This document shows positions 5,554-26,858 of a stretch of 64,000 nucleotides of DNA, piece after piece (the stretch's first letter is position 1; every line of letters begins with the position of its first letter). The notes beneath the pieces were generated by a model. That model was not told the DNA's origin. It saw nothing but the letters and a program-made list of their open reading frames with translations, and searched no databases. A program made the translations under genes and the position numbers. This stretch comes from a virus: positions 1 to 64,000 of the IMG/VR virus record IMGVR_UViG_3300035701_000010. The stretch is one strand, 5' to 3'.

Positions 5554-5555
5554 TA

Positions 5556-10623: not shown

Positions 10624-11232
10624 CTAGGTAAAAGAGTTAAAGCCATTCCGCCGTTCATCTTCCATCGTCTGTACTACTAATCCAAGAGATGTTATACTAT
10701 GAAATTGACCTCGTAGAATTTCTAGAGCCTTCTCGTAAATTGGCTTCACCGCTACGTTGCCCAACATGAGCTCCGTAAAACTAAAGAGCATGAGCTCAAA
10801 CTTATCCATAGCCTCAATGAGTTGTCCTTCTTTAGAATCATCTTTGGCTTGGCTCCAGACTTCTATATATTTTCTTGCAACCCTAGGATCTAATTCTGCG
10901 AAAAGCGTTTCTTCAACCACCTTGCAAATAACTTCAGAGAAATTGTATGAGCCGTGTTTAATAGGGTATAGAATATCACCAGTCACACATTCTTCTAAAT
11001 CATGAAGGATCGCCTTATAGAGAAGTTTCTTACAATCATAGAGTGGCTCGTCAAAATCGTAATCAGATGCTGAGATCCTTCTATTTTCTAGATCTGCAAA
11101 AAACAAAGCGTAGAAGGCGGTGTAGAATGAATGTTCCGCTACGTTGTACCGTTGAATGTGAAGAATGTTAGCACACCTTTCAATATTTGAAAGATTTCTA
11201 GTTCGCAATAAAAATTTTAGTTGGCCAATCAT
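10624..11232 (-). CDS. HD-domain 5'-deoxynucleotidase (YfbR/DatZ-like)
   Basis: NVAEHSF, ILHDLEECVTGDI, AMDKFE motifs. Confidence 0.88.
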   Translation of the reverse strand: MIGQLKFLLRTRNLSNIERCANILHIQRYNVAEHSFYTAFYALFFADLENRRISASDYDFDEPLYDCKKLLYKAILHDLEECVTGDILYPIKHGSYNFSEVICKVVEETLFAELDPRVARKYIEVWSQAKDDSKEGQLIEAMDKFELMLFSFTELMLGNVAVKPIYEKALEILRGQFHSITSLGLVVQTMEDERRNGFNSFT

Positions 11233-12648: not shown

Positions 12649-15600
12649 TTATTTGAGAATTTTAACGTAACATTCCTGTTCCTTTCCTAAAGTGATCTGT
12701 TCTTCACCCAGATAAGAACTTCCTTTAATGCCAGAAATTTTAACGGGCAATCCTTTTTCCAGTTTAATATGGTTTTCACTGAGTCGCTTCACCATATCGT
12801 TCCAAAGCACCACGTTATAGGTTTCTCCCATATCTGTTACTTTAAGAATAGACATTGCTCCTCGTTTGCTTTGAACATTTCTAATGTTGTCTATTGTTCC
12901 AGCAATGACTACTCGTTTGTGTTTTGATTTGGCTAAGAATTCATCGTAACTCATCACTGAGTTCATTTGAAATGGAAAGATTTCAGCAACGGACCGCTTG
13001 CCATAAGGAATTAAATTGCCCATTTCAAAATTCCATTCATCCTCTGTTCTAGGTTCAAATTTTTCATTTCTAAGTTTGGCTAATTTTTTCATAATTTCAT
13101 TTCTATCGCCAAATTTTCTAAAGGCATTAACCACCGTCAGCGCTTTGATGACTCTAATGTTTACAACTCTTTTATTCACTCTTTTATGGAAGTCCTTAAA
13201 CGATTCAAATGGTTGGGCGGCCATAATCGCTTTCGCTGCTTTAAAGCCTACCCCTTTAATACTGGCTAGAGCCCATACGATTTGGTTTCGATGTATAGTA
13301 AAGTGCGCTTTAGAGAGATTTATATGGGGCAGGATAAAAGAAACATCGTATTCACGAATGGCTACGCCTCTTATGGGATTGTATTCATCATCTGGTACTT
13401 GATCTAAAAAAGCACAGAAGAATTCTACAGGATAATGAACTTTAAGAAATTGAGTGGCGTTGGCGATGATCGCATAGCTGGTGGCATGTCCCTTAGGAAA
13501 AGCATACTGAGAAAATCCCATTAGGGCTTCCCAAATTCTGGCAGCCCTTCTTTCTATTCCTGGTTCGTGCTCCCATGTCTTAATAGCCCCTTGAATAAAG
13601 CGGTCTTTGAATTTGTCAAAATCTTCTTTGCTCTTAGCTTTGATAATTTTCCTCATCTTTTCAGAATCTATAGGATTCATTCCAGCGAAAGTTGAAGCGG
13701 TTCTCATAATATGTTCGCTGTAGGTAAGCACTCCAAGAGTGTCAGAAAGCACAGGCTTTAAAGAGTGATGATAATAGCTAACATCTTCTTCACCGTGCTT
13801 TCTGGCAGCGTATGAATCGAATGCTCCAGCCGCCATTGGCCCCGGACGATCCGCAGCAATGAGAAAGATTAAATCTTCAATTCGGTTAGGTTTGACCTTT
13901 TTAAAGAGTCCCCTAAGAGACTCCTTACCTAATTGAAAGAAGCCAATGTTTTCACCTTTAGAGAGGGAGTCATAAACCTTTTGGTCGTCTAATGGAATCG
14001 TATCTAACTTAAACGTTTTGCCATGTCTCTCTTCAATAAGCTTAATCGCCTCGGCAATTATGGTTAGCGTTTTGACCCCAAGAATATCTGCTACCATGAC
14101 TCCTCTTTCATTCAGATATTCATTTGACGTATGGGAATTTTCCCATTGGGTTGCGAAAACCCGCTCGCCTCCTTTGTCTTTGGAAAGTTTGTTGGTTCTT
14201 ACAGGGAGCCAATAATGATAAGGTTCTGGAGATATAACCACACCGGCGGGGTGAAGGGATTCGGCATACGCATTTCCTAAGATGGGTTCCACGTATCGCT
14301 TAACCCAATTTTCATTTTGCGTAAACCAGTCAGCAACAGAAGAGGTTTTAGCTTCTTCTAGGGTAGGAGGCATGGCTTTGGTGATTCTATTTATTTCTTG
14401 AAACGAAAAAGGTTTAAGCTTTTCTTCAAGAAGTCTAACCTTTTTGCTGTTATCATCTTCTTTTGCTTGGTCTATCTTTTTCTTTAAAGAGAAAGCTTCA
14501 GCTCTCGCAAGGCTTTTAATCGCTGCCTTCAATTGGGTTCTGTTAAAGCTACCGACAGAGCAAATATTTTCATTGCCATACTTTTCTTTCAGATAGTTAA
14601 TGGCCATGTCTCTAAATGTATGAGCGATGTCTAGATCTATATCTATATCGGCCATTTTCGCTTCTATTCTTGCAGAGCTAATGAACCGTTCGAATAGGAT
14701 ATCGAATTTAATGGGATCTACAATAGATAAACCAATGAGCCAGAGGGCCACACTTCCATTTGCAGAACCACGAAGAGAGCAAAGGCATCCTTTCTTTTTA
14801 AGAAAACGTACTAGATCATCATAAATTAAAATGTATGAAATAACATCCATTTTAACAAAAGCATCCACTTCTCTTTCTATCCTCTTAACGTACTCTTCTC
14901 TTGGAACAGAGAGTTCGCTGTTGGCTTCTCTTTTGGCCAATCCGAGTTTTATTCTGTGCCTAAGATATTCTTCCTCTGTAAACCCTTCTTTGTATTTTGG
15001 AAAATTAGTAATATTGATTTTAGGAATCCTAAGGCCGCCGGTAGGAATTTCAAAATCGCATTTGTTGGCAATCTCTGTTGTGGCATGAATCATGAAATCA
15101 AAATCTTTTTGGGAGATATAATTGCAACGTTCATTTCTTGTGTCTCTCATGTCTTCATAATTTTTAAACCAAATAGAATCACAATAGGTTTCTGCAAGGT
15201 CAGATTCTGATTTCATTTTGATTACCTTGCTTTGTACTCTACCCATCTCTTCTGTAAGATAATGAACATCATTGGTGACGACTGTTGCAATGTCTAACTT
15301 CTTTGAAAACTCTAACAGTGTTTGATTATAAAGGGCTTGAATATCTTTTTCTTCATCCATAATTTGGTGCATTTGAATCTCTAAATAGAGGTCGTCACCA
15401 AATAAAGTATGTAGCCAAACAAGCCTCTTTTGTGCTAAGTCGAGCCTCTCTCTGAGTACCTCTTTAGCAATTAAACCCTTTAGGCAAGCGGTAAGTACCA
15501 CTAAGCCCTCTCGATGCTGAGCCAAGGTTTTAAAGTCTATTCGAGGACGATAATAATAATGTTCGGCAGACCATGAAAATTTTTGAAGTTTTAAAATATT

Positions 15601-16242
15601 TCGATAGCCTTTGGCGTTTTTGGCTAAGAGGATGATGTGGTTAGAGGATCGATGATCTCCATCTTTGAGAGAAGCATCTTTGGTGATATAATTTTCTACA
15701 CCAAAAATGGGTTTCACTCCAAACTCTTTAGAACGCATTTGCAATTCCATATGCGAGGAGACATTTCCATGGTCGGTGATGGCAATGGCAGGCATTCCAA
15801 ATTCTTTTGCTTTAGAAAGATATGACTTGCATTGCGTGATTCCGTCAAGAGTGCTATAGTCCGTATGACAATGCAAATGAATAAACTGAGACTGGTAGGG
15901 TTCGACCAAAAACTTGAATGGTTCCAGAATGGCAAGGGGTATGGGAAGAATGACCAGCTTGAGTTTTCTATTAATCCTTGGTTCTTTTGGAATTTTATCT
16001 TTATCTATCCAAAATAAATTTTCCTTAAAAAGTATAATAAGCCTCTTGACTTCTTTAGGAAAAAGACCAAAGGTATGAATCGGGATGTTAGTTTCTTCCA
16101 ACTCTCTAAATTCGTATTTAGAAGAATAGAAACCGAACAGTCCCTTGTTGGTGGTCAACACGGAGGCTGTTCGGTCCAAAACATTTTCTTCTAAGATCTT
16201 AATTCCACCCCGCTTTAAAATTTCCAGTATGTGTTGGTTCAT
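12649..16242 (-). CDS. dnaE: DNA polymerase III alpha subunit (family C, DnaE-like) with ~115-aa N-terminal extension
   Basis: PHP HLHCHTDYSTLDG/TDHG/GVE/TNDVHY, RGSANGS, LFERF, DIDID, HPAGVV, GFFQL, RPGP, IKGVG HhH, C-terminal OB fold. Confidence 0.95.
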   Translation of the reverse strand: MNQHILEILKRGGIKILEENVLDRTASVLTTNKGLFGFYSSKYEFRELEETNIPIHTFGLFPKEVKRLIILFKENLFWIDKDKIPKEPRINRKLKLVILPIPLAILEPFKFLVEPYQSQFIHLHCHTDYSTLDGITQCKSYLSKAKEFGMPAIAITDHGNVSSHMELQMRSKEFGVKPIFGVENYITKDASLKDGDHRSSNHIILLAKNAKGYRNILKLQKFSWSAEHYYYRPRIDFKTLAQHREGLVVLTACLKGLIAKEVLRERLDLAQKRLVWLHTLFGDDLYLEIQMHQIMDEEKDIQALYNQTLLEFSKKLDIATVVTNDVHYLTEEMGRVQSKVIKMKSESDLAETYCDSIWFKNYEDMRDTRNERCNYISQKDFDFMIHATTEIANKCDFEIPTGGLRIPKINITNFPKYKEGFTEEEYLRHRIKLGLAKREANSELSVPREEYVKRIEREVDAFVKMDVISYILIYDDLVRFLKKKGCLCSLRGSANGSVALWLIGLSIVDPIKFDILFERFISSARIEAKMADIDIDLDIAHTFRDMAINYLKEKYGNENICSVGSFNRTQLKAAIKSLARAEAFSLKKKIDQAKEDDNSKKVRLLEEKLKPFSFQEINRITKAMPPTLEEAKTSSVADWFTQNENWVKRYVEPILGNAYAESLHPAGVVISPEPYHYWLPVRTNKLSKDKGGERVFATQWENSHTSNEYLNERGVMVADILGVKTLTIIAEAIKLIEERHGKTFKLDTIPLDDQKVYDSLSKGENIGFFQLGKESLRGLFKKVKPNRIEDLIFLIAADRPGPMAAGAFDSYAARKHGEEDVSYYHHSLKPVLSDTLGVLTYSEHIMRTASTFAGMNPIDSEKMRKIIKAKSKEDFDKFKDRFIQGAIKTWEHEPGIERRAARIWEALMGFSQYAFPKGHATSYAIIANATQFLKVHYPVEFFCAFLDQVPDDEYNPIRGVAIREYDVSFILPHINLSKAHFTIHRNQIVWALASIKGVGFKAAKAIMAAQPFESFKDFHKRVNKRVVNIRVIKALTVVNAFRKFGDRNEIMKKLAKLRNEKFEPRTEDEWNFEMGNLIPYGKRSVAEIFPFQMNSVMSYDEFLAKSKHKRVVIAGTIDNIRNVQSKRGAMSILKVTDMGETYNVVLWNDMVKRLSENHIKLEKGLPVKISGIKGSSYLGEEQITLGKEQECYVKILK

Positions 16243-16245
16243 TCT

Positions 16246-17451
16246 TTATTTTTCCCATTGTTGGAGAATATATCTTTGATCGTTGTCATCAAGATCAAAA
16301 TTTTCGGCAATTAAAGCGGCTATAACATCAGTTTCGTTACAGCGTACTCTATCTCTGTGAAGAAACTCTAGGTGTGGAATATAATAGCTTGGTTCTGCAC
16401 TTTCTTGATTAAGAACAAGAAAAGCCATAGATTCTTTGTCCATTCCTTTTTTATGAAAAAGAAAAGACAACGGAATATTAAGAAAGGTAATGAAAGTTTT
16501 AGCTGATTGGGGGAGCCAATTGAAAAATTTCTGTTGTAATATCATAACTTCTTCAAAAGAAGTTCTTACTTCTGGATCAAATGCCCCCACATTAATGGCT
16601 TTTGATAGAATATCCATAGCTAGATTAACGGCGTAATAGAATACTGCCAATGAGCCAAAGCGGAAAGACCTTGGTTTGTTTTTGCCAGAGTACATATCGT
16701 ATTTGAAAGGGCAACTGATAATCTTTTTAGCTCTTTCAAGCATTGTATCATAAATATGAAAAGAAGTAGCGTTGTGATAATACGCCCCGACTTCTATTTC
16801 TAGTATGCCAGCTAAGATTTCTTGAAGAAAGGTCCACTCAAACACATTGATGTTAAAGGCTCCCCACACTATGTCATTGCTTCGCATTTTTGTAAAGCAA
16901 TGAAGGTTTTCGTCTCTGATAAGAAATTGAACGAAAATAGTGCATGGTCTATCTTTTGTGAGCAAAGTGTAATCATAATCTTCTGGTTCAGGAACCACAA
17001 TTAACGCTTCTCTAGTAAACCTATCCCTAATTAGCATCTGTTCAACGTTGTAGATTTGATCAAAATATCCAGGGGTAGGAAGACTTGGAATAAAGTTCAT
17101 AACCATTCCAGGCTCTGTAGCCATCGTTGCTCTAATTCTCGGGCCATAGGCTCCTCTCCATATCTTTAAATCATCACTATAGTCAAAACAATTCGGAAGA
17201 AAATGATGAAGGAATTCTAAATCATTTCTTCCTGCAAAAACCCAAAGGGTTTCAGCGATAGTGGCTGCGATGTTGTTATATCGATATGGCCTTGCAAGCG
17301 CACGTTTTTTGGGATTTGTAATTACGAATGAATGGTCAACGAGTTCTATTGTTTCCTTTCCCCTGACTGTAACCTCTTTTCCATTGGCCAAGAGGTATTC
17401 AAGATTATCCATAAACCCTTGGCCAACGTTATCAGAAATTGGACTATACAT
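16246..17451 (-). CDS. Thymidylate synthase homolog of the dUMP hydroxymethylase type
   Basis: GAYGPRI, catalytic PC (DRPCT), MRSNDIVWG-x3-INVFEW, YYH-x3-SFHIY; ~400 aa with C-terminal extension as in hmdU-phage enzymes. Confidence 0.8.
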   Translation of the reverse strand: MYSPISDNVGQGFMDNLEYLLANGKEVTVRGKETIELVDHSFVITNPKKRALARPYRYNNIAATIAETLWVFAGRNDLEFLHHFLPNCFDYSDDLKIWRGAYGPRIRATMATEPGMVMNFIPSLPTPGYFDQIYNVEQMLIRDRFTREALIVVPEPEDYDYTLLTKDRPCTIFVQFLIRDENLHCFTKMRSNDIVWGAFNINVFEWTFLQEILAGILEIEVGAYYHNATSFHIYDTMLERAKKIISCPFKYDMYSGKNKPRSFRFGSLAVFYYAVNLAMDILSKAINVGAFDPEVRTSFEEVMILQQKFFNWLPQSAKTFITFLNIPLSFLFHKKGMDKESMAFLVLNQESAEPSYYIPHLEFLHRDRVRCNETDVIAALIAENFDLDDNDQRYILQQWEK

Positions 17452-17460
17452 AAGTTCTCC

Positions 17461-18486
17461 TTAGTGAGTGAATTGACTTGCTGATTGGAGCACAAGGCTT
17501 CCACAAAGTCCTTCGGTTTTTCTTCTTTCCAAATACGGTTGCCGCTTGGCTAACCGAGTGGTGACATCCAAGGCTTCGTACAGTGGCACCGTGAGGTTAA
17601 GAATCTTTTTTTCTTTCTCATCCTCTTCCATCACTGATTGAACCAGTGTTTCTTGTTTATCAAATTCATCAGTCCCTATAGAAAGTCGAAGTTTTTTCAT
17701 AATCGACTCACCTGTTCTAAGGGCGGCAATAGGATTGTCCTTCATGGCTTTGAATGTGTCAGTCAATCGTTGGCTATTGCTTTTTATAGCATTGAATCCA
17801 GAATTAAACCGAACGAGAAAGTCTTGTGGCGAAATAGCCTTAACTCTAGAAAGTACAAATCCTTGAACCAAAGGCGATTTCTCAGCCATCACCATTCCAT
17901 TGGTACAAATCAGCCTGTTTAGAAAGGGGATGCCACTGGTTGGAAAATGTCCAATGTCGCTGTGCATAACTTCGCTGCCTATTTCTACCAAATCACCCTT
18001 TTCTACTTTGATTGGTCTAATAGAACTGTCAGCACAGAGATATCTTATCCCATAGTCACTGTAATTGCCTCTTTTAAACTCAAGGTTTTCCAGCTTCATG
18101 GCGGTGAAAAGATCTTGGTGGGGTGGAGCTACGGCAATGCTTGGTCTGGAAACGGCACGCACTTCTTTCCCTTGCCAATAGGTCCACATTTGGCTGTCCT
18201 GTGTGAATTCTTTGTTCATTCTATTGACATCTCTAATCAACATGTCGGTTGGGGAGGTTTCATAGTAGAATGATACAGGCATGTGAAACAATTTGAGAAG
18301 GCTCTTCATTGCAGAGTCTCTCATCTCATAGGTTTTTTTGCCTACTTTGAGCCCGTCTTCAGTAAGCTCCCAGTCTGAAAAGTTAACCAACTCGGCTCGT
18401 TTCCCTGTATCCTGCTCTTTCACATGGGTTGTAAAGTCCTTCAAATTCTTGGTGCTAAACACTTCGTTGTCTTTCAGTTCGATCAT
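17461..18486 (-). CDS. DUF932-like phage protein
   Basis: RAVS...HSDIG...RLICTNGMV motif. Confidence 0.65.
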   Translation of the reverse strand: MIELKDNEVFSTKNLKDFTTHVKEQDTGKRAELVNFSDWELTEDGLKVGKKTYEMRDSAMKSLLKLFHMPVSFYYETSPTDMLIRDVNRMNKEFTQDSQMWTYWQGKEVRAVSRPSIAVAPPHQDLFTAMKLENLEFKRGNYSDYGIRYLCADSSIRPIKVEKGDLVEIGSEVMHSDIGHFPTSGIPFLNRLICTNGMVMAEKSPLVQGFVLSRVKAISPQDFLVRFNSGFNAIKSNSQRLTDTFKAMKDNPIAALRTGESIMKKLRLSIGTDEFDKQETLVQSVMEEDEKEKKILNLTVPLYEALDVTTRLAKRQPYLERRKTEGLCGSLVLQSASQFTH

Positions 18487-18513
18487 GGCCTTGCCCTCCT
18501 TTAAAAGTTAGTC

Positions 18514-19056
18514 TTAGATTTGGTTTACCTTACGCCTACAATATACCACAGCGACTGCTTCTTGGCTATACTTTTTTAAACTAAATCCGTGAAACTGTAA
18601 GTTTAGTAATTTGAGGGAACGAGGTTTATTGCGAGCAGATTCTGCAATTGCGCACTTCCCCTCTCTTCCAGGAAGAACTGGATTAACACAAAACTGGCAA
18701 GAGCGATGAACTAAGAAGAGTAAGGCATCATAATTATCTCTTCTTAAATATTGTAGAAGAATGGGATAGGCTTTTTGCGAGATCTTAATGGTATTCACGT
18801 CCGCTAATCGTTTTCCATGAAGCTTAAGATCGCATTCAAAATGAAATGGTACGCTGCACCATGGACATTTAGAACTTGGATTAAAGTGGCCATTAAATTC
18901 GTAAATATCCATAAGCTTACCATCCAACCAATGGGTAAATAGTTCCTCACTAAAACCTCCCTCTTTGAAATTATATAGAAAACATCCTTTGGTTTCAAAT
19001 TGATCCACTTTAATCGTTGGATTTTTAATGAATAAGCGATCTGATAGGGTAAACAT
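18514..19056 (-). CDS. Divergent Cys-rich DUF2284-like metal-binding protein
   Basis: KCPWC...SCQFC...KC...PRSL pattern parallels the 19865-20518 protein. Confidence 0.45.
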   Translation of the reverse strand: MFTLSDRLFIKNPTIKVDQFETKGCFLYNFKEGGFSEELFTHWLDGKLMDIYEFNGHFNPSSKCPWCSVPFHFECDLKLHGKRLADVNTIKISQKAYPILLQYLRRDNYDALLFLVHRSCQFCVNPVLPGREGKCAIAESARNKPRSLKLLNLQFHGFSLKKYSQEAVAVVYCRRKVNQI

Positions 19057-19354
19057 TTTGTTCTCCTACTGGTTTTTTGAAATAAAAAGTAACATGGTCT
19101 GAGCTAATATGAACATGGTAGTATTCGAATCCATCTGCAATTGTTTTAGTCCAGTCATCAAAAAGAATATTAGAAATTGAATAGGTAAGCATTCGTATTT
19201 TGTTTTCTCTTTTGATTTTTTCTATATGCTCTAAAAATTCTAGTGGGAGTTCTCTTTCTTTATGTAGATGCATATAGATAGCCCAAACAGAAAGCAAGCT
19301 ACATCCAAGAATAAGAAATCCTAGAACAATAAGGAGTTGATAAAATTGGTTCAT
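19025..19354 (-). CDS. Membrane-anchored hypothetical protein
   Basis: N-terminal TM helix LLIVLGFLILGCSLLSVWAIYM. Confidence 0.65.
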   Translation of the reverse strand: MNQFYQLLIVLGFLILGCSLLSVWAIYMHLHKERELPLEFLEHIEKIKRENKIRMLTYSISNILFDDWTKTIADGFEYYHVHISSDHVTFYFKKPVGEQNVYPIRSLIH

Positions 19355-19360
19355 AGATTT

Positions 19361-19525
19361 TTATCCTTCGTCACATGCATCAGAATATCCGGCTCGGTAG
19401 CCATTTTTCCAACAATCCCACCACGGCCAATAGTCACCTTTATGTTTTAGAGATATTCCTTGTTCTTCAGCATACTTTATAAACTCATCCCATTGAAATT
19501 TATCTGCACTTTTTGGTCTACGCAT
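19361..19525 (-). CDS. Small Trp-rich hypothetical protein (54 aa)
   Basis: Manual translation MRRPKSADKFQWDEF...YWPWWDCWKNGY; AAGGAG RBS. Confidence 0.6.
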   Translation of the reverse strand: MRRPKSADKFQWDEFIKYAEEQGISLKHKGDYWPWWDCWKNGYRAGYSDACDEG

Positions 19526-19847
19526 TTTTTTTGCTCCTTTCTTTTAGGAGTTCTATAAAGACATCTCCATGACATGGCTTGGGTCTGCAAAAACATCCCA
19601 GCACCTTATCTTTAAGTTCATCAAGGTGCTCTAGAATCCATTTTCTTCGTTCTGGTTCTATTTCTTCTAAATCCTTATCTCCATTAAGCCATCGCCTACA
19701 ATCTTTGATCACTAATGGTCGATCTCTTTCTCGTTGCATGATGAAGGGATTTCCCCAATGCTTGTTTCCTCTTCTTCTCCCAATAAACACGTCGAACTGG
19801 TCTCCATTCTTAACGTTGACGACAGTGGTAGCCATGTTTTCCTCCAT
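19518..19847 (-). CDS. DUF4326 domain protein
   Basis: VFIGR...WGNPF...LKDKVLGCFCRPKPCHGDV. Confidence 0.9.
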   Translation of the reverse strand: MEENMATTVVNVKNGDQFDVFIGRRRGNKHWGNPFIMQRERDRPLVIKDCRRWLNGDKDLEEIEPERRKWILEHLDELKDKVLGCFCRPKPCHGDVFIELLKERSKKNA

Positions 19848-19864
19848 AGTTTTAGGCTAAAGAG

Positions 19865-20518
19865 TTAATTGTTTTTATGGCGGATTAGAAGCATGGTGAC
19901 GTTGGTAAGATAATTTTGGACAGGGTACTCGTATTCTATTCCAAGTTTTTTAAGCAATTCATAAACGTCTATTCCTATGGCTTCCAAGCTTGGCATTCCG
20001 CGATGTTTACAGGGAGGATTATCTCGGTTGGGGCATTTATGTCCACAAAGGTCACAGTGTCCTGGAATCAAAGCAAAGGCTCTGTATCCTTTCTCTTTGA
20101 AAATATTTCTATAGCCGTTCATAAGTTGGCTGATCGATCTGCTTTGTCCTGCTTCCGTACCTTTGAGCTGCTTGCCTTTCTTGGGTATTAGATTAATGTG
20201 GGACAACTCTTTCTTGTCAATCTTCCAAGATTTGCTGCCGTCATTTTTCCACACCAATAACACAGCCACTTCAAAACGGTCAAGAAAAGTTCTGGTGCTG
20301 GCAAGGGTAGCAAACCAAGGGTAGGTGAGCCAGAGATAGGGGGGACAGAGTATAGCTCGCTTATAAAGTCCGCATTGAAAGCATTTTAAACGAGCCGTTA
20401 AGCCGATTGGAATGATTGAAGGTTTTATGTACCTGATTTCAGAAAGTGATTCTGGAAATCCAAGTTCTTTTTGAACAATTCTCTCAATCTTTCGGTCTGG
20501 AAACATAATTGCATCCAT
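19865..20518 (-). CDS. DUF2284 predicted metal-binding protein
   Basis: RLKCFQC-x7-CPP...GHCDLC-x3-C-x7-C-x5-PSLEAIGIDV. Confidence 0.8.
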   Translation of the reverse strand: MDAIMFPDRKIERIVQKELGFPESLSEIRYIKPSIIPIGLTARLKCFQCGLYKRAILCPPYLWLTYPWFATLASTRTFLDRFEVAVLLVWKNDGSKSWKIDKKELSHINLIPKKGKQLKGTEAGQSRSISQLMNGYRNIFKEKGYRAFALIPGHCDLCGHKCPNRDNPPCKHRGMPSLEAIGIDVYELLKKLGIEYEYPVQNYLTNVTMLLIRHKNN

Positions 20519-20787
20519 GAGTAAATGATAATAATTGCTGGTTTAATATCTTTCTTTGTTTCCTTTACCAAGTGTTCTAGTTTTAAAGCTTTTGATTGGG
20601 TCATGAAACAAGATACGCAAACAACGCTTTTCACTTTCTTGGCTCTGGTATATTTGGCTCCACGACCATCCATATGCTTCTTTAATCTATTAATAAAGTC
20701 GTTGGTCGCTCCACAGTAATAACTTCCATCTTCACATTCTAACAGATAGACTTGCCAATCTTGTATTTCTGTTTGATGGTTGATCAT
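20425..20787 (-). CDS. GIY-YIG nuclease (YhbQ/SLX1-like)
   Basis: VYLLECEDGSYYCGATND-x3-RLKKH-x2-GRGAKYTR...ALKLE. Confidence 0.88.
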   Translation of the reverse strand: MINHQTEIQDWQVYLLECEDGSYYCGATNDFINRLKKHMDGRGAKYTRAKKVKSVVCVSCFMTQSKALKLEHLVKETKKDIKPAIIIIYSWMQLCFQTERLRELFKKNLDFQNHFLKSGT

Positions 20788-21818
20788 CTTTCTAAGACTC
20801 TTTTGACTACAACCAATTTATCTCTTGGCATCCAAGATCGTTCAACATACTCTGTGTAGTGTGGTTCTTTTAAGGATTTTTCAATTACTCTCCATGTTTC
20901 TTTGGTTGGCTTTTCAAGCGTTTCCTTGCCCATTCGGTCTGGCAGTAAGCCTACTCTATAGGACCGTGTATTGCATCCGTAACAGGGACTGAATGTTCTA
21001 TATCCGTAGAACAAAGCTCTTCGAGCCGCTTTGAATTGAGGACCTTGCCAGATGTCATTGATTGACTGGTGCAAGACATTACCGCATTTATAGATACCAA
21101 CCCAATCCATGCAGCATAGAGCCACATTGCCATTCCATCGAATACTAACTTCTCTAAATGGTCTAGCGCATCGATCCCCTTGCAATGAAAAATCTCTTGG
21201 AAAAGCGCAAGCGGCATGGGTCATTAATTTTCCATGCGTTCCTCCTGATTCATGACTTACATCTTCTGTAATGACAGTATGGTGTTCGGAAGGCTTGCGT
21301 CTCCGATGCGGGTTAGCTTTTTGATCTTTTGGATAGTTGTAGAAAGGGTAAGGTCCTTTATATCTTGCCAGTATTCTTTCTACTGTTTTCATCCGATCAT
21401 AATTGTCTAAAAGAATAACATTAATCCCCGCATCCATCAAGGCATTGATTTCGATGGTTGTCGCACGCAACAGGCCTCCCCCATTGGTGGTGACCATAAG
21501 AGAAGATTTAGGAAGACGTTTTCTAAAAATAGAAACAAGCTTAGGAAGATCAGGATGCATGGTTGGTTCTCCATGCATCGCAAACTCTACCCTTGGGTTC
21601 CATCCTGCCTCAATGATTTGATGTGCAATTTCGATGGCCGTATTTATTTCCATAAATTTAAAAGGCCCGCTGTTGGTTCCATGAAATCTTTCAAGCCCAT
21701 TAGCTTCATTATCCCGAATACTCTGAATACCACAGAAGCTACAAGCCAGTTGGCAACCTTCTACGGGTTCGATTTGAACAGCGTTTGGCGAATCTTGATA
21801 AGTGGAAATTGATTTCAT
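20784..21818 (-). CDS. Radical SAM enzyme with SPASM/Twitch domain
   Basis: CQLACSFC, HGEPTMHP, TNG; C-terminal CARPF...ALCCMD...GNV...PCYGC. Confidence 0.92.
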   Translation of the reverse strand: MKSISTYQDSPNAVQIEPVEGCQLACSFCGIQSIRDNEANGLERFHGTNSGPFKFMEINTAIEIAHQIIEAGWNPRVEFAMHGEPTMHPDLPKLVSIFRKRLPKSSLMVTTNGGGLLRATTIEINALMDAGINVILLDNYDRMKTVERILARYKGPYPFYNYPKDQKANPHRRRKPSEHHTVITEDVSHESGGTHGKLMTHAACAFPRDFSLQGDRCARPFREVSIRWNGNVALCCMDWVGIYKCGNVLHQSINDIWQGPQFKAARRALFYGYRTFSPCYGCNTRSYRVGLLPDRMGKETLEKPTKETWRVIEKSLKEPHYTEYVERSWMPRDKLVVVKRVLER

Positions 21819-21834
21819 AAGATTTTCTCCAAAA

Positions 21835-22641
21835 TTAAGTTAGATCTTTTGAAGACTCGTAAGCTTTCTTCCATTGAATTCTTACATCGAATCGCTCGCG
21901 CATCCCGTCCCATCCCGTTTTGCTCACCTTAGTAACTACAGTTACAAAGTCTGGATGTAATTGTGCTAATCCTTTAGCGCATTGCTCTTGAAGCCTAGCA
22001 GTTCTATAAGTGCTGCACCCTCCAGGTTTGCCAATCATTTGATCTACCGTGCAATCGGTTAGAACCATATTTCTGTATCCTACTTCCAAAAATTGCAATG
22101 TAACGTCAAAGTCCTCCATTAATTGTAGCCGGTTAAAGACTGCTCCTATTTTGTGGTAGACCCTGACGTCGATGCCATGGACATTAAGCTGCCGTGTGCA
22201 GGTGACAAACTCTTTAGGGAACAATCTGTTGTTGCCAGACCGTTGGCTCACTCCGACCAATGGGTAGTCTTCTTCTCTTAATATTCTGAAAATTTCTTTA
22301 AGAGTTCTCCAAATTTCTTCTGGCTTCATATCACGAAGATGGTAAGACTTGTCTGACTTTCTAATGGCCCATTTGTTAAGATCATCATCCAACATGATAA
22401 TTCTCTTAACCCCGATTCTTTTAGCCCATCCCATAATCCATTGCCGCTTGTTGGTAATTCCTTCTGTTGGAGAAGCGACGGCCCAATAGCCTTTCTTTCT
22501 ATGCTTACTAATTTCTTCTTCAGGGCACACAAGAGTGACAGCATATCTTAACATGTCGCTTTCATTCCATTTAAGAATATCATAGGTGAGTTGGTTGCCA
22601 ACTCTTCCTCTTGTCGGAATCACTATGCGTTCTTCTGCCAT
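21835..22641 (-). CDS. GT-A glycosyltransferase, TAGT/GREB1 (base J / hydroxymethylpyrimidine glycosyltransferase)-like
   Basis: IVIPTRGR, GITNKRQWI, IMLDDDL, EDFDVTLQ, GGCSTYR, L-x3-HP-x-FV motifs. Confidence 0.8.
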   Translation of the reverse strand: MAEERIVIPTRGRVGNQLTYDILKWNESDMLRYAVTLVCPEEEISKHRKKGYWAVASPTEGITNKRQWIMGWAKRIGVKRIIMLDDDLNKWAIRKSDKSYHLRDMKPEEIWRTLKEIFRILREEDYPLVGVSQRSGNNRLFPKEFVTCTRQLNVHGIDVRVYHKIGAVFNRLQLMEDFDVTLQFLEVGYRNMVLTDCTVDQMIGKPGGCSTYRTARLQEQCAKGLAQLHPDFVTVVTKVSKTGWDGMRERFDVRIQWKKAYESSKDLT

Positions 22642-22644
22642 AAA

Positions 22645-23562
22645 TTACTCCGTTTTGAGCATTAAAGCCATCCATTGCCTACAATGAGATACATGGTAAG
22701 TCAGCCCTGCCATATTTCCAATGAAGGAAAATGGGAGTGAAGATTTTAATTCTCTGTATAGCGAATCTTTGATTGGTTTTCTTGGAAGGATGCCAACAAA
22801 TTCTCTAAAAATAAAATCCTCTTGAGCAAACTCTCTAAATTCTTCAAATTCCCATTCGTAGTGGTGGCTGCTTTCTGAGTCTTTCCATGCCCATTGTTCT
22901 CCTTTGTTTTTGTCTGGATTTGGAGAGGATAGAATAGCAATGCCATCGCTTTTAAGATTATTATAAATATTTTTCATAAAAGTAGAAGCTTTGTTCATAG
23001 GGATGTGTTCTAGAACTTCCATGGCGACAATGGCATCGGCTTTTTCTGGCATTTTAAGAGGATAACCAAGGTCTGCGATAACGGCATGGTATTCGTCATT
23101 GGCTTTGTGGGGGAGTTGTGGTTCCAATCTTCTATGGTCTGCATCGACACCGTAGTAGTGAAGTCTAGGCCATCCAAAATAATTGCCGTTGTTGCGCCAA
23201 AAGGTGTAAAGCTGACCCCTAGAGCACCCAAAGTCTACAAGCACTCTGTAATTGGCCTTGCTCTTGCTAAAGTATTCTCTAAGCCAATTTAAGGCAATAA
23301 TGAATCTAAAGAACTGAGCCACTTCAAATGTGTTAAACCATCGCATCTTAATTAGATTGAAGGTATTGTCATTTAATTTAGATTCAGTTTTGAAATACGT
23401 TTCTGAACGAAGGTCGAATAGTTCTGGTTGATAAGTTTCTAGCAGATGGAGTGGTTTGTCGGCAATGGCATGTCTTGGAGCAGGGTGTCTCTTCATACAA
23501 CCTCCAAATCTTAAAAAGGGGCGGTGCTGTTCTGCACACGCCCCTTCGAGTTTAAGAAACAC
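22645..23562 (-). CDS. Class I SAM-dependent methyltransferase
   Basis: LVDFGCSRG, YYGVD, ADAIVAMEVLEHI, LKSDG-x2-ILSSPN, HHYEW. Confidence 0.88.
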   Translation of the reverse strand: MFLKLEGACAEQHRPFLRFGGCMKRHPAPRHAIADKPLHLLETYQPELFDLRSETYFKTESKLNDNTFNLIKMRWFNTFEVAQFFRFIIALNWLREYFSKSKANYRVLVDFGCSRGQLYTFWRNNGNYFGWPRLHYYGVDADHRRLEPQLPHKANDEYHAVIADLGYPLKMPEKADAIVAMEVLEHIPMNKASTFMKNIYNNLKSDGIAILSSPNPDKNKGEQWAWKDSESSHHYEWEFEEFREFAQEDFIFREFVGILPRKPIKDSLYRELKSSLPFSFIGNMAGLTYHVSHCRQWMALMLKTE

Positions 23563-23573
23563 AAGATAATTGC

Positions 23574-24719
23574 TTAGTCGTCATCCTCTTCTTCAACTAC
23601 TTTTTTGGCTTTCTTCTTTGGTTTGTCATCATCATCATCGTCGTCATCTTCTACGACTTTTTTGGCTTTCTTCTTGGGTTTCTCATCCTCGTCATCATCC
23701 TCTTCAACTACTTTCTTCTTCTTAGGCTTATCGTCATCATCGTCCTCTTCTTCTTCTACGACTTTTTTGGCTTTCTTCTTGGGCTTGTCGTCATCGTCGT
23801 CGTCATCGTCGTCATCCTTCGCCTTGCCCTTTTTGGCCTTTTCTTGAAGTTTTTCAGCGAGGGCTTTGCCTTTGGCCTTTCGTTCCTTGGAGGCTTCGGT
23901 GGCTGCTTTCAAAGCAACCTTGATCATCTTGCCAAAGTTTTCTGGAAGTTCTTTTTCAAAAGCAAAGGCGGCGTACCCATCGTAAGGCTCTTTAGCTTTC
24001 TGCAGCTTTCCGAAAGGAACTGTTCCCTTCACTTCAAGCTCTTTCGGAGTCAATCTGTTAAAGAGAACAGCTAGACCAGACTCTGCACCTTTGGCTTTCA
24101 CGATGGACAGTACGATCACATTGTTTTGTTTGAAGATTGTGATAGAGGTTTTGTGGGTTACTTCGAGGTCGTAATCTTCAGCAATTTTGTCAACGGCTTT
24201 CTTGTACTTGATGGGGATGATGCCATTGTCGATGACGTCGGTACGAGTCTTTTTAAAAGACTTCATCTCTTTTGCGACCTTCTTCTTGGGCTTGTCATCA
24301 TCGTCATCGTCGTCGTCATCTTCTTCTACGACTTTCTTGGCTTTCTTCTTGGGTTTGTCATCATCATCGTCATCATCCTCTTCTTCTACGACTTTTTTGG
24401 CTTTCTTCTTGGGCTTGTCATCATCGTCATCGTCGTCGTCATCTTCTTCTACGACTTTCTTGGCTTTCTTCTTGGGTTTGTCATCGTCATCATCATCCTC
24501 TTCTTCTACGACTTTCTTCTTTGGCTTGTCATCGTCGTCATCGTCGTCATCGGCCTTTATTTTCTTGGCCGCAACTTTGGCGCATTTTGAATCTTCATCA
24601 CCGCCAAAGGCACATGCTTCCGTGCAGTCATCTTCATCTGCATCATACATTCCGAAGCACTGAGGTTTCTTCTCTTCCTTCTCTTCCTTGTCTTTTTTCT
24701 TGTCCTTGTCCTTAGCCAT
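23574..24719 (-). CDS. Charge-block repeat protein with N-terminal CFG Cys motif and central globular domain
   Basis: AGGAGGG RBS and own promoter; about 9 copies of D(6-9)KPKKK(AKK)VVEE flanking a ~120-aa domain. Confidence 0.85.
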   Translation of the reverse strand: MAKDKDKKKDKEEKEEKKPQCFGMYDADEDDCTEACAFGGDEDSKCAKVAAKKIKADDDDDDDDKPKKKVVEEEDDDDDDKPKKKAKKVVEEDDDDDDDDDKPKKKAKKVVEEEDDDDDDDKPKKKAKKVVEEDDDDDDDDDKPKKKVAKEMKSFKKTRTDVIDNGIIPIKYKKAVDKIAEDYDLEVTHKTSITIFKQNNVIVLSIVKAKGAESGLAVLFNRLTPKELEVKGTVPFGKLQKAKEPYDGYAAFAFEKELPENFGKMIKVALKAATEASKERKAKGKALAEKLQEKAKKGKAKDDDDDDDDDDKPKKKAKKVVEEEEDDDDDKPKKKKVVEEDDDEDEKPKKKAKKVVEDDDDDDDDKPKKKAKKVVEEEDDD

Positions 24720-24778
24720 TGTTGTTCCCTCCTGAAAAAGTGTTTTAGTTTCGAGTAGCAAATTACTCGTTATGGCCT

Positions 24779-25919: not shown

Positions 25920-26858
25920 TTACATCTCCATAAAAAGTTTAATTCTTTCCATAACTTTCTTAACTTCAAACATCCCAAAACAATTGTCATCTATATTTTC
26001 AAAAGGTTCGCATACTTCGTGTGTCTTAATTGGACATTTTGGATACGTGCAAGCAGACCTCAGTTGAGGGCTTCGTTGGGCCGTAAGCTTAATCAAGTGA
26101 TTAAATGAGCCCATTTCTATTGGATCTGTATTGGCAAAAAGTCCAATCGTTTTAGTTCCTACGGCAACAGATAGGTTAAGTAAAAATCCATCAAAAGAGA
26201 CAAAGACATCACAAAATTCTAAAGCTTGAGCAAGCAATACAGAATCTTCAATGTCCGTAAACAGAACCATTTGATTGCCAAAGGTTCTTTTAAGCATTAA
26301 AACTCTAACGTCATTAGAATTAGATCCAAATAACGCAATTTTTGCATTTGGAAAAGAAGTGTAGATTGCTTTTATAAGATCTTTTAGAAAAGAAAAAGGA
26401 GGTTTAACATAGGGGTTCGGACCTTCTCCAATGCAAATCCCAAAAAGCGGGTTAGGTCCTTTTTTTATTCTAGAATGAATAATGTCTATAGGATGAGCAG
26501 ATTTTTTGAAATAATAAAATTCTCCAAATGGTGGAGGAATAATGGTGGGTGGGGGAAAAGCGTATGGATATGAATGCCATTTTTCATAATTCTGAATAAA
26601 AGCTTGCCCCAATTCGGTATTGGCTCTACTTATGATTGATTCAAAGTGTTTGGCTAGAAGAATAAATATGTTTTCCATCGTAATTGGATAGATCTTTATA
26701 CTATCAGATTCTATCGTAGAAAAGAAGTCAAAACAATTTTCTTCTGTAAGAACACTAACCATCACGTCATCTGTTACACCAGTTCTTTTAAGAATATAGG
26801 TTGATTTAAATACCTCTTTCTTTTCACCAGTAGTCACAAACAAAACATCAGTTCGCAT
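25920..26858 (-). CDS. Glycosyltransferase family 9-like (GT-B) protein
   Basis: CDVFVSFDGFLLNLSVAVGTKTIGLF-x2-TDP plus Cys-rich tail typical of heptosyltransferase-family C-terminal domains. Confidence 0.72.
   Translation of the reverse strand: MRTDVLFVTTGEKKEVFKSTYILKRTGVTDDVMVSVLTEENCFDFFSTIESDSIKIYPITMENIFILLAKHFESIISRANTELGQAFIQNYEKWHSYPYAFPPPTIIPPPFGEFYYFKKSAHPIDIIHSRIKKGPNPLFGICIGEGPNPYVKPPFSFLKDLIKAIYTSFPNAKIALFGSNSNDVRVLMLKRTFGNQMVLFTDIEDSVLLAQALEFCDVFVSFDGFLLNLSVAVGTKTIGLFANTDPIEMGSFNHLIKLTAQRSPQLRSACTYPKCPIKTHEVCEPFENIDDNCFGMFEVKKVMERIKLFMEM

Follow-up and report, generated by a model that had tools for sequence, protein, structure and literature searches.

Genes for a thymidylate synthase (TS) homolog, a TAGT-family glycosyltransferase and a radical SAM enzyme, clustered in an uncultivated sediment phage, are found together in unrelated viral backbones far more often than expected by chance. 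Judging from their sequences, they probably belong to a phage pathway that hypermodifies DNA thymidine, whereby T would be swapped for 5-hydroxymethyluracil (hmU), a sugar would be added, and the sugar would be reworked by the radical SAM enzyme. The pairing of TAGT with the radical SAM enzyme recurs in dozens of other viruses; no description of a sugar-transferase/radical-SAM pairing was found in the searchable literature, and no isolated phage with this radical SAM enzyme was found. The window analyzed here is the whole stretch from positions 1 to 64,000 of IMGVR_UViG_3300035701_000010, a record of 97.6 kb that is ~70% complete. Every gene of the set is on the minus strand:

10624-11232, minus: HD-domain YfbR-like 5'-deoxynucleotidase / dNTPase (PF12917 at 4.5e-24)
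16246-17451, minus: TS homolog, 401 aa (PF00303 at 1e-18)
17461-18486, minus: DUF932-like protein (Atlas feature score 0.96-0.97, TM 0.77-0.80 to DUF932 clusters)
18514-19056, minus: Cys-rich 180-aa protein (eight Cys residues including two CxxC motifs)
19865-20518, minus: DUF2284 Cys-rich predicted metal-binding protein (PF10050 at 7.3e-23)
20425-20787, minus: GIY-YIG homing-endonuclease-like gene (PF01541 at 6.6e-16)
20784-21818, minus: radical SAM enzyme with SPASM domain (SPASM 1.9e-13; Radical_SAM 7e-9)
21835-22641, minus: TAGT GT-A glycosyltransferase (PF20691 1.5e-18, 67.9 bits, cut-off 27.5; phrog_842 3.5e-46)
22645-23562, minus: Hen1-like class I methyltransferase (Methyltransf_23 at 1.3e-11)
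25920-26858, minus: GT9-like GT-B glycosyltransferase between helicase and primase (PF01075 at 2.4e-5)

The ORF coordinates bear out the positions that the initial annotation gave for the TS, radical SAM, TAGT and methyltransferase genes as well as the gaps of 16 bp (21819-21834, radical SAM to TAGT) and 3 bp (22642-22644, TAGT to methyltransferase), and the peptide MRSNDIVWGAFNINVFEW that it quoted for the TS homolog is found in the sequence. The TS homolog is spaced 3 bp from DnaE (12649-16242), and six ORFs lie between it and the radical SAM gene (three assigned to GIY-YIG, DUF2284 and DUF4326, and three of 109, 180 and 341 aa). The radical SAM-TAGT junction is spanned by a contig from run X1, possibly the source run (20895-22550), and the TAGT-methyltransferase junction by contigs of other sediment runs (X2, 22621-23047; X3, 22566-23628), all with 0 mismatches; thus, the junctions are not assembly artefacts.

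The TS homolog is predicted to be a dUMP hydroxymethylase that would supply 5-hmdUMP before replication, on the strength of a signature that is also compatible with a methyl product. At the diagnostic positions for dUMP hydroxymethylases (criteria from PMC13326640; ThyA numbering), it carries C at C146, N at N177, D at L143 and D at D169, and it shares an identical KDRPC motif with SPO1-like gp29. It clusters with phiW-14 gp230 and SPO1-like gp29, apart from ThyA, T4 gp42 and RB69 gp48, and the clade that it forms with the two annotated dUMP hydroxymethylases has a support of 80/88. Both the dUMP-acting hydroxymethylase reading of the initial annotation and the comparison with ThyA and T4 gp42 that it called for thus come out in favor of the SPO1-like enzymes. 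The best PDB match is the CMP hydroxymethylase MilA (4.6e-24), with ThyA at only 1e-7, and N177=N and D169=D recur in all 40 TS genes (40/40) that adjoin the module in other loci. The HD gene has matches to phrog_7076 (dATP triphosphohydrolase) and to phrog_318 (dNMP phosphatase); its product is a candidate enzyme for the removal of thymidine nucleotides. Searches of the 97.6 kb record (~70% complete) found no dNMP kinase, dCMP deaminase or TET/JBP.

The class assignments of the two central enzymes also held. The glycosyltransferase, for which TAGT membership had been claimed, matches PF20691 and phrog_842, has an intact DxD motif (D85-D86-D87) that is invariant together with IPTRGR and GGC-x-YR, and is a bona fide TAGT, with sugar transfer onto hmU in DNA as the predicted activity. 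In most loci with a PolA backbone it is the sole glycosyltransferase recognised beside the module and can, therefore, act as a first-sugar transferase. The GT9-like enzyme is a candidate second DNA glycosyltransferase: its feature score and TM against GT9 clusters of the Protein Atlas, two of them viral, are 0.96 and 0.83, and its gene is kept in the two relatives of the window lineage that were compared, L058 (32%) and L082 (26%). The model of the initial annotation omitted this enzyme and the lineage-conserved Cys-rich proteins.

The radical SAM enzyme, previously proposed to be of the SPASM/Twitch, BtrN type, is by its sequence a BtrN-like Twitch enzyme and a conserved partner of the glycosyltransferase. 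Its invariant cysteines comprise C22-x3-C26-x2-C29 plus C217, C235/C236, C279 and C282; BtrN is its only PDB sequence match and, as 4m7t, its best fold match by far (E 1.3e-13, TM 0.74). DesII, BlsE (rank 18), AbmM and SpeY, all of which we take to act on sugars, cyclitols or nucleosides, are also among the fold matches.

Within a few kb of the radical SAM gene in 48 IMG/VR loci, TAGT was present in 44 and a TS of the dUMP-hydroxymethylase type in 41, with three loci (L036, L041 and L070) added by profile searches, many of these counts coming from one related phage group and hence not being independent. The module occurs in at least seven variants of gene order, and a profile search of the window genome against the PolA backbone found only the radical SAM, TAGT, TS and HD genes to be shared. 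Two protein clusters, P0020 and P0018, are natural TAGT::radical-SAM fusions of the same architecture; P0020 (579 aa; 42% to TAGT residues 5-265, 43% to radical SAM residues 8-329) occurs on three contigs from three sources and in L080 is a single open frame between the kinase and TS. The radical SAM gene was also found with TAGT on a Bacteroidales contig (L073) and, in the Actinomadura prophage L071, with a C5-methylase, ParB, a weakly GT4-like gene, Tet_JBP and TerL. The radical SAM enzyme is probably an optional tailoring module that attaches to systems glycosylating hydroxymethylpyrimidines, regardless of how the hydroxymethyl base is made. In support of a tailoring role, 11 PolA-backbone loci have TAGT, kinase and TS without it.

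This kinase, a 5-hmdU DNA kinase (5-HMUDK), is a clear match (1.7e-51) in most relatives of the module, those of the PolA backbone, where the TAGT-radical SAM-TS module adjoins and often overlaps it. The initial annotation had recognised no hmdU kinase in the window, an observation that now extends to the whole 97.6 kb record, in which neither Pfam (PF18723) nor a custom profile detected one, and to the window lineage. The amino-acid transferase family ADDT (PF18724) had no match in the window record or in five relatives, three of them rated complete. The proposed distinction from kinase routes thus stands for the window lineage and fails for the PolA backbone. Since the kinase overlaps TAGT in most relatives, the acceptor there could be a phosphorylated hydroxymethyl group, and a plain O-glycoside is possibly not made.

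Three members of the window lineage retain the arrangement TAGT-radical SAM ... DUF2284, 180-aa ORF, 341-aa ORF ... TS. Conservation within the set is highest for DUF2284 (L058 59%, L082 51%), which in L082 comes straight after the radical SAM gene and overlaps it; the DUF2284 product is a candidate partner of the radical SAM enzyme. The 180-aa Cys-rich protein (L058 45%, L082 36%), which has no BLASTP similarity to the DUF2284 protein, is a possible metal or redox accessory. The DUF932-like gene is kept next to TS (L058 47%, L082 39%); in the PolA backbone, a DUF932 gene is likewise near the module. The GIY-YIG gene is an insertion just after the radical SAM gene, outside the pathway; L082, in which DUF2284 lies directly against the radical SAM gene, has no match to it.

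Under the proposed pathway, dUMP would be hydroxymethylated by the TS homolog, as its signature suggests, and 5-hmdU would be placed into DNA instead of T by the phage DnaE replicase, with removal of thymidine nucleotides possibly aided by the HD nucleotidase. After replication, TAGT would transfer a sugar from an NDP-sugar to the oxygen of the 5-hydroxymethyl group, in the manner of base J, a role that its family, motif and context point to; a second sugar may come from the GT9-like enzyme. The BtrN-like Twitch enzyme, whose linkage to TAGT is observed and whose chemistry we infer, would then take a hydrogen from the sugar, most likely turning a secondary alcohol into a ketone (alternatively, epimerising or dehydrating the sugar), with the DUF2284 and 180-aa Cys-rich proteins possibly serving as metal or redox partners. 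In the last and weakest step, confined to the window virus and L058, a Hen1-like, probably metal-dependent methyltransferase may O-methylate a sugar hydroxyl.

As the substrate of the radical SAM enzyme, the DNA-bound sugar is, in our estimate, slightly ahead of the NDP-sugar donor before transfer. To our knowledge, all characterised sugar-acting Twitch enzymes use small molecules, not polymers, and the closest solved relatives (BtrN, DesII, BlsE, AbmM and SpeY) all have free small molecules or nucleotide-linked sugars as substrates, which favors the donor. The radical SAM enzyme could then make an unusual NDP-sugar (by oxidation, deoxygenation or decarboxylation) that TAGT transfers to hmU, with no radical chemistry on DNA; we rate this as rather unlikely, treating it as a variant of our best explanation, counted inside the smaller share that falls to the donor. 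Near the module, the window has no recognised genes for NDP-sugar biosynthesis, in contrast to Maribacter phage Molly, which has a UDP-glucose dehydrogenase and an epimerase/dehydratase beside the glycosyltransferase and TS, and a fusion of donor-maker and transferase would be equally natural. However, such donor chemistry is usually done by ordinary NAD-dependent enzymes, and some related phages keep TAGT without the radical SAM enzyme, so that TAGT does not depend on a donor made by the latter.

Action on the base, converting 5-hydroxymethyl to 5-formyl as anSME would or forming a C-C bond at the 5-methylene carbon, is improbable. The constant partner of the radical SAM enzyme is a source of hydroxymethylpyrimidine (TS, or C5-methylase plus TET), the glycosyltransferase is not always of one family (mostly TAGT, but only weakly GT4-like in L071), the fold matches include anSME, which oxidises CH2-OH or CH2-SH, and the phosphorylated hydroxymethyl of the kinase-bearing lineage would leave readily in a radical or electrophilic reaction. 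Yet the fold match to BtrN is far better (1e-13 vs 5e-6 for anSME), and the radical SAM gene overlaps TAGT translationally and is even fused to it, which points to a common, sugar-bearing substrate. Were the base modified, the glycosyltransferase would act on another fraction of sites or on the product. It is more improbable still that no single DNA-modification pathway exists, TS serving nucleotide supply and the glycosyltransferase, radical SAM enzyme and methyltransferase acting on something else, for example a host surface glycan, an RNA or a small molecule. For ~65% of phage-glycosyltransferase contigs, no adjacent annotated base-modification enzyme was found (Pyle et al., bioRxiv 2023.12.21.572611), and the methyltransferase most resembles the RNA 2'-O-methylase Hen1 and elsewhere adjoins a sigma factor or DUF7873 gene; against this, the TS has the hydroxymethylase signature and not that of ThyA, TAGT, the radical SAM enzyme and TS are kept together over backbones and gene orders, and the flanks of the module belong to dedicated DNA-base systems, namely, the 5-hmdU DNA kinase (PolA backbone) and TET plus C5-methylase (prophage).

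The methyltransferase is an accessory, Hen1-like enzyme and possibly a sugar O-methylase. Bacterial Hen1 is its best NCBIfam match (4.8e-8, far below cut-off) and its best PDB sequence match (2.9e-8 with the profile) and ranks second among its fold matches, and the invariant E182, E185, H186 and H233 align with EVIEH...H of Hen1, preserving the metal-ligand pattern. Its first 66 residues are unmodelled and not present in homologs, and the true start is probably Met23, at about 23496. The chances are even that this enzyme has no glycan role and is a Hen1-type RNA 3'-end 2'-O-methylase for repair or protection, or acts on another substrate, its adjacency to TAGT being fortuitous. Only eight homologs were found in 5.8 billion proteins; those in L076 and L079 are not close to any TAGT or radical SAM gene, and none was found in the same-lineage L082 or in about 70 other loci with TAGT and/or radical SAM, including all PolA-backbone loci. 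The co-occurrence of glycosyltransferase, radical SAM and methyltransferase on which the initial annotation relied thus survives across unrelated backbones for the first two, joined by TS, and not for the third. Conversely, TAGT is only 3 bp away on the same strand, L058 keeps the methyltransferase-TAGT order at only 39-47% identity, the partner Pnkp was not seen among the scanned genes, and Hen1 methylates a sugar hydroxyl held by nucleic acid, which is chemically near the proposed role.

In mildiomycin and blasticidin S biosynthesis, the CMP hydroxymethylase MilA, a glucuronosyl-transferring synthase and the radical SAM enzymes BlsE/MilG form the same trio of enzyme classes, and both MilA and BlsE are among our matches; however, the substrates of these enzymes are free nucleotides and bases, the product is an N-glycoside, and the BlsE match is much weaker than that to BtrN. 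Base J of kinetoplastids (JBP1/2 plus JGT) shares the predicted O-glycosylated hmU in DNA, whereas in the phage a TS-type dUMP hydroxymethylase would produce hmU ahead of replication, with no TET/JBP found in the record. We know of no radical SAM partner in base J synthesis; this would be the phage addition.

T-even glucosylation of hmC likewise employs a TS-homolog hydroxymethylase followed by a DNA glycosyltransferase, and the T6 beta-glucosyl-HMC-alpha-glucosyltransferase belongs to the TAGT family (PMC13390438), the same Pfam family as the window enzyme. In the phage, however, the base would be uracil (Asn177), not cytosine, TAGT in most relatives must add the first sugar, not just the second, and a Twitch radical SAM enzyme is coupled or fused to it. 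ViI, M6 and phiW-14 combine a dUMP hydroxymethylase, 5-HMUDK and an amino-acid:DNA transferase, with the radical SAM isomerase gp53 in M6 (PMC8989533). Entry of hmdU via a TS homolog and tailoring that includes radical SAM are shared, as is 5-HMUDK in most relatives, although not in the window lineage; a glycosyltransferase replaces the amino-acid transferase, and M6 gp53 is spore-photoproduct-lyase-like, in contrast to the BtrN/Twitch type found here.

GT-A enzymes near ThyS genes have been noted (Pyle 2023, bioRxiv 2023.12.21.572611), and C5-methylase/5mYOX (TET)/glycosyltransferase clusters (Burke 2021, PMC8256090; Pyle 2023) also make and then glycosylate a hydroxymethylpyrimidine; neither report mentions a radical SAM enzyme. 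The Actinomadura prophage carries a cluster of this type that contains the present radical SAM enzyme, whereas the window differs in its pre-replicative TS route and in uracil. With BtrN, a 2-deoxy-scyllo-inosamine dehydrogenase, the phage enzyme shares the fold and the CX3CX2C cluster, and its four-Cys auxiliary cluster aligns with Cys-containing motifs of the BtrN C-terminal domain; it differs in its ~18% identity, an extra 30-50 loop, a C-terminal tail and its DNA-modification context.

The record that contains the window is 97.6 kb long and is estimated to be ~70% complete, the window being its first 64 kb. All genes of the region lie on the minus strand, and the replication module, read from upstream to downstream in the direction of transcription, comprises:

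minus strand, UvsW-like helicase, then DnaC-like protein, DnaJ, UDG-superfamily protein and DnaB-like helicase
25920-26858, minus strand, GT9-like glycosyltransferase, then Toprim primase
23574-24761, minus strand, 395-aa protein of acidic and basic repeats
22645-23562, minus strand, class I methyltransferase (MTase)
21835-22641, minus strand, TAGT glycosyltransferase
20784-21818, minus strand, radical SAM/SPASM enzyme
minus strand, after the radical SAM gene, GIY-YIG endonuclease, DUF2284 Cys-rich protein and DUF4326 protein
minus strand, ORFs of 109 aa and 180 aa, then DUF932-like 341-aa protein (17461-18486)
16246-17451, minus strand, TS homolog, then DnaE
minus strand, beyond DnaE, HD 5'-deoxynucleotidase-like protein, RecA and SbcCD-like proteins

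On re-examination of the window, the coordinates, the 3-bp and 16-bp gaps and the peptide reported in the initial annotation were all correct. The TAGT/MTase junction is spanned without mismatch by contigs of other sediment metagenome runs, and the radical SAM/TAGT junction by a contig of run X1, from which this DNA may itself come; the gene arrangement is therefore not an assembly artefact. When contigs were mapped to the window, single runs left some bins uncovered by contigs, and many contig joints fell at 23645-24673, within the repeat-rich gene upstream. In the product of this gene, Asp/Glu runs alternate with KPKKKAKK blocks around a small central domain; the number of repeats may vary or assemble poorly, given the many different joints inside the repeats among the contigs of four runs. 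The virus is near-identical in at least three further sediment metagenome runs, a habitat label consistent with oxygen-sensitive chemistry; blastn of the 7.3 kb region against phage DNA gave no match.

The radical SAM family is tied to DNA glycosyltransferases by both neighbourhood and gene fusion. Among the 48 loci found by scanning IMG/VR with the radical SAM protein (32-57% identity), 44 have a TAGT within a few kb and 41 have a TS homolog, usually in the order TAGT-rSAM-TS with overlapping reading frames; in the more divergent members, the three genes are reordered yet still together. The IMG/VR loci have nothing in common with the window genome beyond the module genes and an HD phosphohydrolase, and their backbone is a different one, with AEP primase, UvrD, DUF932 and PolA (hereafter, the PolA backbone). 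Of the association among glycosyltransferase, radical SAM and MTase genes that the initial annotation had envisaged, the linkage of the first two stood, and conserved co-occurrence with the MTase did not. A DUF932-type protein lies near the module in both of these unrelated backbones (17461-18486 in the window and 3957-4988 in L002), which could be due to chance, as Atlas DUF932 clusters are mostly viral, or to a shared role.

True relatives of the window virus (26-59% identity) are represented by two more viral contigs, L058 and L082; both keep the GT9-like gene, the primase, the repeat protein upstream of TAGT, TAGT-rSAM, DUF2284, the 180-aa Cys-rich protein, the DUF932-like gene and TS. The L082 copies of the DUF2284 and radical SAM genes overlap directly, and no match to the GIY-YIG gene of the window was seen in this contig. 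The 180-aa protein was considered as a second DUF2284, with no similarity in BLASTP. Between the DUF932-like gene and TS, L082 contains ORFs of 254 and 181 aa (13356-14950) with motifs that, by eye, are reminiscent of phosphoribosyltransferase and OMP-decarboxylase-type enzymes. In L058, the helicase and GT9-like genes are separated by a gene for an adenylosuccinate-synthetase homolog (4920-6107; PF00709, 2.2e-55) reminiscent of PurZ in phages with 2-aminoadenine genomes; no such homolog was detected in the record that contains the window.

When 1.84 billion representatives were searched with a profile, 391 cluster representatives of the radical SAM family were recovered at E<=1e-30, several of them long. 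Two of the long members (P0018 and P0020) are fusions of the TAGT::radical-SAM type; P0020, whose alignment to the two window proteins runs end to end, was found on three contigs from three sources and, in L080, is a single open frame between a kinase and TS. Beyond viral contigs, the family occurs in three places, including a Verrucomicrobiales MAG contig with the full module; a Bacteroidales contig carries the radical SAM gene with TAGT, and in a prophage of Actinomadura rayongensis DSM 102126 (L071, NZ_WUTW01000008.1, 151472-168443), the only occurrence found in a cultured organism, the radical SAM gene lies beside a C5 cytosine methylase, together with ParB, a weakly GT4-like gene, a TET/JBP dioxygenase and a terminase (TerL). 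From these loci, it follows that the constant company of the radical SAM enzyme is a hydroxymethylpyrimidine-making DNA system and a glycosyltransferase. The ORFs upstream of the radical SAM gene in the prophage and in L046 were considered as hidden TAGTs and rejected, as profile comparison showed no similarity; by GC3, the prophage ORF is probably not a real gene. A tblastn search with the radical SAM protein against 50,697 deposited phage records gave no match.

The converse does not apply: eleven PolA-backbone loci have TAGT, a kinase and TS without a radical SAM gene, nine other loci have a TAGT with neither radical SAM, kinase nor TS close by, and in one more the TAGT is accompanied only by a weak TS match. 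Such a distribution is consistent with an optional tailoring enzyme. In a radical SAM-less sub-branch of the PolA-backbone phages (L081, L083-L088, L090-L093), TAGT overlaps the 5-hmdU DNA kinase gene, followed by TS.

The initial annotation had set the module apart from kinase-dependent routes of hypermodification, and this is accurate for the window lineage: neither the 97.6 kb record nor that of L058 has a match to the PF18723 kinase at E<=1, and a custom profile also gave none. In PolA-backbone relatives, however, the module adjoins, and often overlaps, a clear 5-hmdU DNA kinase (PF18723, 1.7e-51), so that it cannot generally be regarded as an alternative to that route. A search with one Pfam family, PF18724 (ADDT), which we take to be the amino-acid:DNA transferase (aGPT-Pplase) family, found nothing in the window record or in the five relatives searched, of which three are rated complete; nor was the family detected in L092, the one complete record (with terminal repeats) searched from the radical SAM-less sub-branch.

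The TS homolog (PF00303, 67.9 bits) has its catalytic Cys aligned with ThyA C146 in a KDRPC motif identical to that of SPO1-like gp29, and its closest solved structure is MilA, a CMP hydroxymethylase (4.6e-24), with thymidylate synthases at only ~1e-7. In this enzyme superfamily, Asn or Asp at ThyA N177 specifies uracil or cytosine, respectively, a bulky residue at L143 is associated with a methyl product and an acidic one, which admits water, with a hydroxymethyl product, and Asn at D169 is the mark of 5-hydroxy-dCMP synthases (PMC13326640, 2026). A MAFFT alignment with E. coli ThyA, T4 gp42, RB69 gp48, SPO1-like gp29 and phiW-14 gp230 places Cys146, Asn177, Asp143 and Asp169 in the window protein. 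The Asn lies in an INVF motif and, in a separate comparison, is matched by Asn in B. subtilis ThyA and by Asp in MilA. In a maximum-likelihood tree, the TS homolog and its L058 relative belong to an 18-row clade with the two annotated dUMP hydroxymethylases, phiW-14 gp230 and SPO1-like gp29, that leaves out ThyA, T4 gp42 and RB69 gp48, with moderate support (80/88) and long reference branches. Both the residue signature and the clade agree with the resemblance to hmdU-phage dUMP hydroxymethylases noted in the initial annotation, and the residue signature predicts a dUMP hydroxymethylase. Identification as a dCMP hydroxymethylase was rejected given Asn at N177, and as a 5-hydroxy-dCMP synthase given Asp, not Asn, at D169; Asn177 and Asp169 are present in 40 of the 40 module TS genes of other loci.

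The closest cultured TS homolog (41% identity, Asn177 and Asp143) comes from an isolated flavobacterial phage, Maribacter phage Molly_1 (L052, 69968-74727), where it lies directly downstream of a UDP-glucose dehydrogenase-family gene, an NAD-dependent epimerase/dehydratase and a gene annotated as beta-glucosyltransferase; the product in this phage may be pentosyl- or uronyl-hmU.

The TAGT assignment in the initial annotation held, with PF20691 scoring 67.9 bits, or 68.3 bits in the genome search, where the cut-off is 27.5, and D85-D86-D87, the GT-A DxD metal/nucleotide-sugar motif, invariant in 17 sequences. From its context, i.e. an adjoining TS hydroxymethylase, 5-hmdU DNA kinase or TET, the enzyme is predicted to transfer a sugar to a hydroxymethylpyrimidine, or to the sugar on it, in DNA; the family includes the T6 enzyme thought to add a second glucose to glucosyl-hmC (PMC13390438). 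The earlier model left out a second glycosyltransferase, the GT9-like GT-B enzyme, and given its conservation in the window lineage, the glycan may have more than one sugar.

In the radical SAM enzyme, C22, C26 and C29 of the CX3CX2C motif are invariant in 20 sequences. The C-terminal domain matches PF13186 (1.9e-13), and its invariant cysteines (C217, C235/C236, C279 and C282) align with the Cys-containing motifs of the BtrN C-terminal domain; because there is only one four-Cys set, a Twitch rather than a full SPASM domain is suggested. BtrN is the sole sequence match in the PDB and the top fold match of the AlphaFold model (pLDDT 78) at 1.3e-13, the next ones being near 1e-7; among the fold matches are also DesII, BlsE, AbmM and SpeY, which we take to be sugar-, cyclitol- or nucleoside-acting enzymes. 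No NCBIfam model reaches its cut-off (the best, N_Twi_rSAM, scores 40 bits vs. 170). The enzyme may work in a BtrN-like manner, outside the limits of BtrN orthology. Selfish elements also seem to target this gene preferentially: two homologs (P0025 and P0160) are interrupted by inteins, one with an HNH endonuclease, and the GIY-YIG endonuclease gene of the window directly follows the radical SAM gene.

The MTase, regarded in the initial annotation as a pathway partner, is accessory: it is present in L058 and absent from L082 and all other module loci. Used as a single query, it yielded no patterns in viral contigs. Only eight homologs were found among 5.8 billion proteins, and elsewhere they adjoin a DUF7873 gene or a sigma factor (the contexts of P0002, P0003 and P0007 being recovered only in part). 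HMM, PDB sequence and fold comparisons all place it nearest, among characterised enzymes, to the Hen1 ribose 2'-O-methyltransferases, in which a Glu-x2-Glu-His...His motif binds the metal that holds the ribose diol. Residues E182, E185, H186 and H233, invariant in the 8 homologs, align with the EVIEH and His of Hen1 (3jwh/3jwj), the E-x2-E-H part being weakly diagnostic because it is common in other class I methyltransferases; with the Hen1 model TIGR04074, the protein scores 31.9 bits vs. a cut-off of 340, outside the equivalog. These residues fit a putative O-methylation of a sugar hydroxyl on a nucleic acid, and a role on RNA fits equally well.

The genetic linkage being directly observed, we infer the chemistry, every step of it, as follows: the TS homolog would hydroxymethylate dUMP, hmdU would enter DNA by replication, TAGT would O-glycosylate hmU, and the Twitch radical SAM enzyme would abstract a hydrogen from the sugar, most likely to convert an alcohol to a ketone as in BtrN, with optional O-methylation thereafter. 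We put forward tentatively, and with more doubt than confidence, that the radical SAM enzyme works on the DNA-attached sugar to yield a keto-, epimerised, deoxy- or C-C-cross-linked glycosyl-hmU, O-methylated in this virus, and that the enzyme, fused to the glycosyltransferase in some viruses, could be combined with TS-type (hmU) or TET-type (hmC) precursors.

The substrate may instead be the NDP-sugar donor, as, to our knowledge, all known relatives of the radical SAM enzyme act on small molecules, whereas the presence of TAGT without it in sister phages speaks against the donor. Fusion to the transferase fits either substrate, and a complex prediction for TAGT and radical SAM scored 0.00, which counts neither for nor against contact. 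Less probably, the enzyme would act directly on the hydroxymethyl base.

Whether restriction enzymes, CRISPR nucleases and sequencing chemistries can read a phage genome depends on its DNA hypermodifications, and enzymes of such pathways already serve in the mapping of epigenetic bases. Should the predicted chemistry be correct, the module would provide a new type of reaction, i.e. radical tailoring of either the DNA-borne sugar or the sugar donor, together with a new modified thymine, and such modules would move between pre-replicative (TS) and post-replicative (TET) systems; if the sugar is indeed DNA-bound, this would be the first case of a radical SAM enzyme tailoring a glycan on DNA, and its product would be a new natural base of DNA. 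Direct experimental handles are available in the fusion proteins and in natural variants that have or lack the radical SAM gene.

A metavirome survey has already counted GT-A enzymes in the vicinity of ThyS genes (Pyle 2023, bioRxiv 2023.12.21.572611), and glycosylated hmU in phages has already been anticipated in the literature. No Twitch radical SAM enzyme linked to DNA glycosylation was found in the literature searched, the founding TAGT paper (2013) being outside it; the only radical SAM enzyme described there in DNA hypermodification, M6 gp53 (PMC8989533), belongs to a different class. Compared with BtrN, the 2-DOIA dehydrogenase, the phage radical SAM enzyme has ~18% identity and sits in a DNA-modification rather than an aminoglycoside context.
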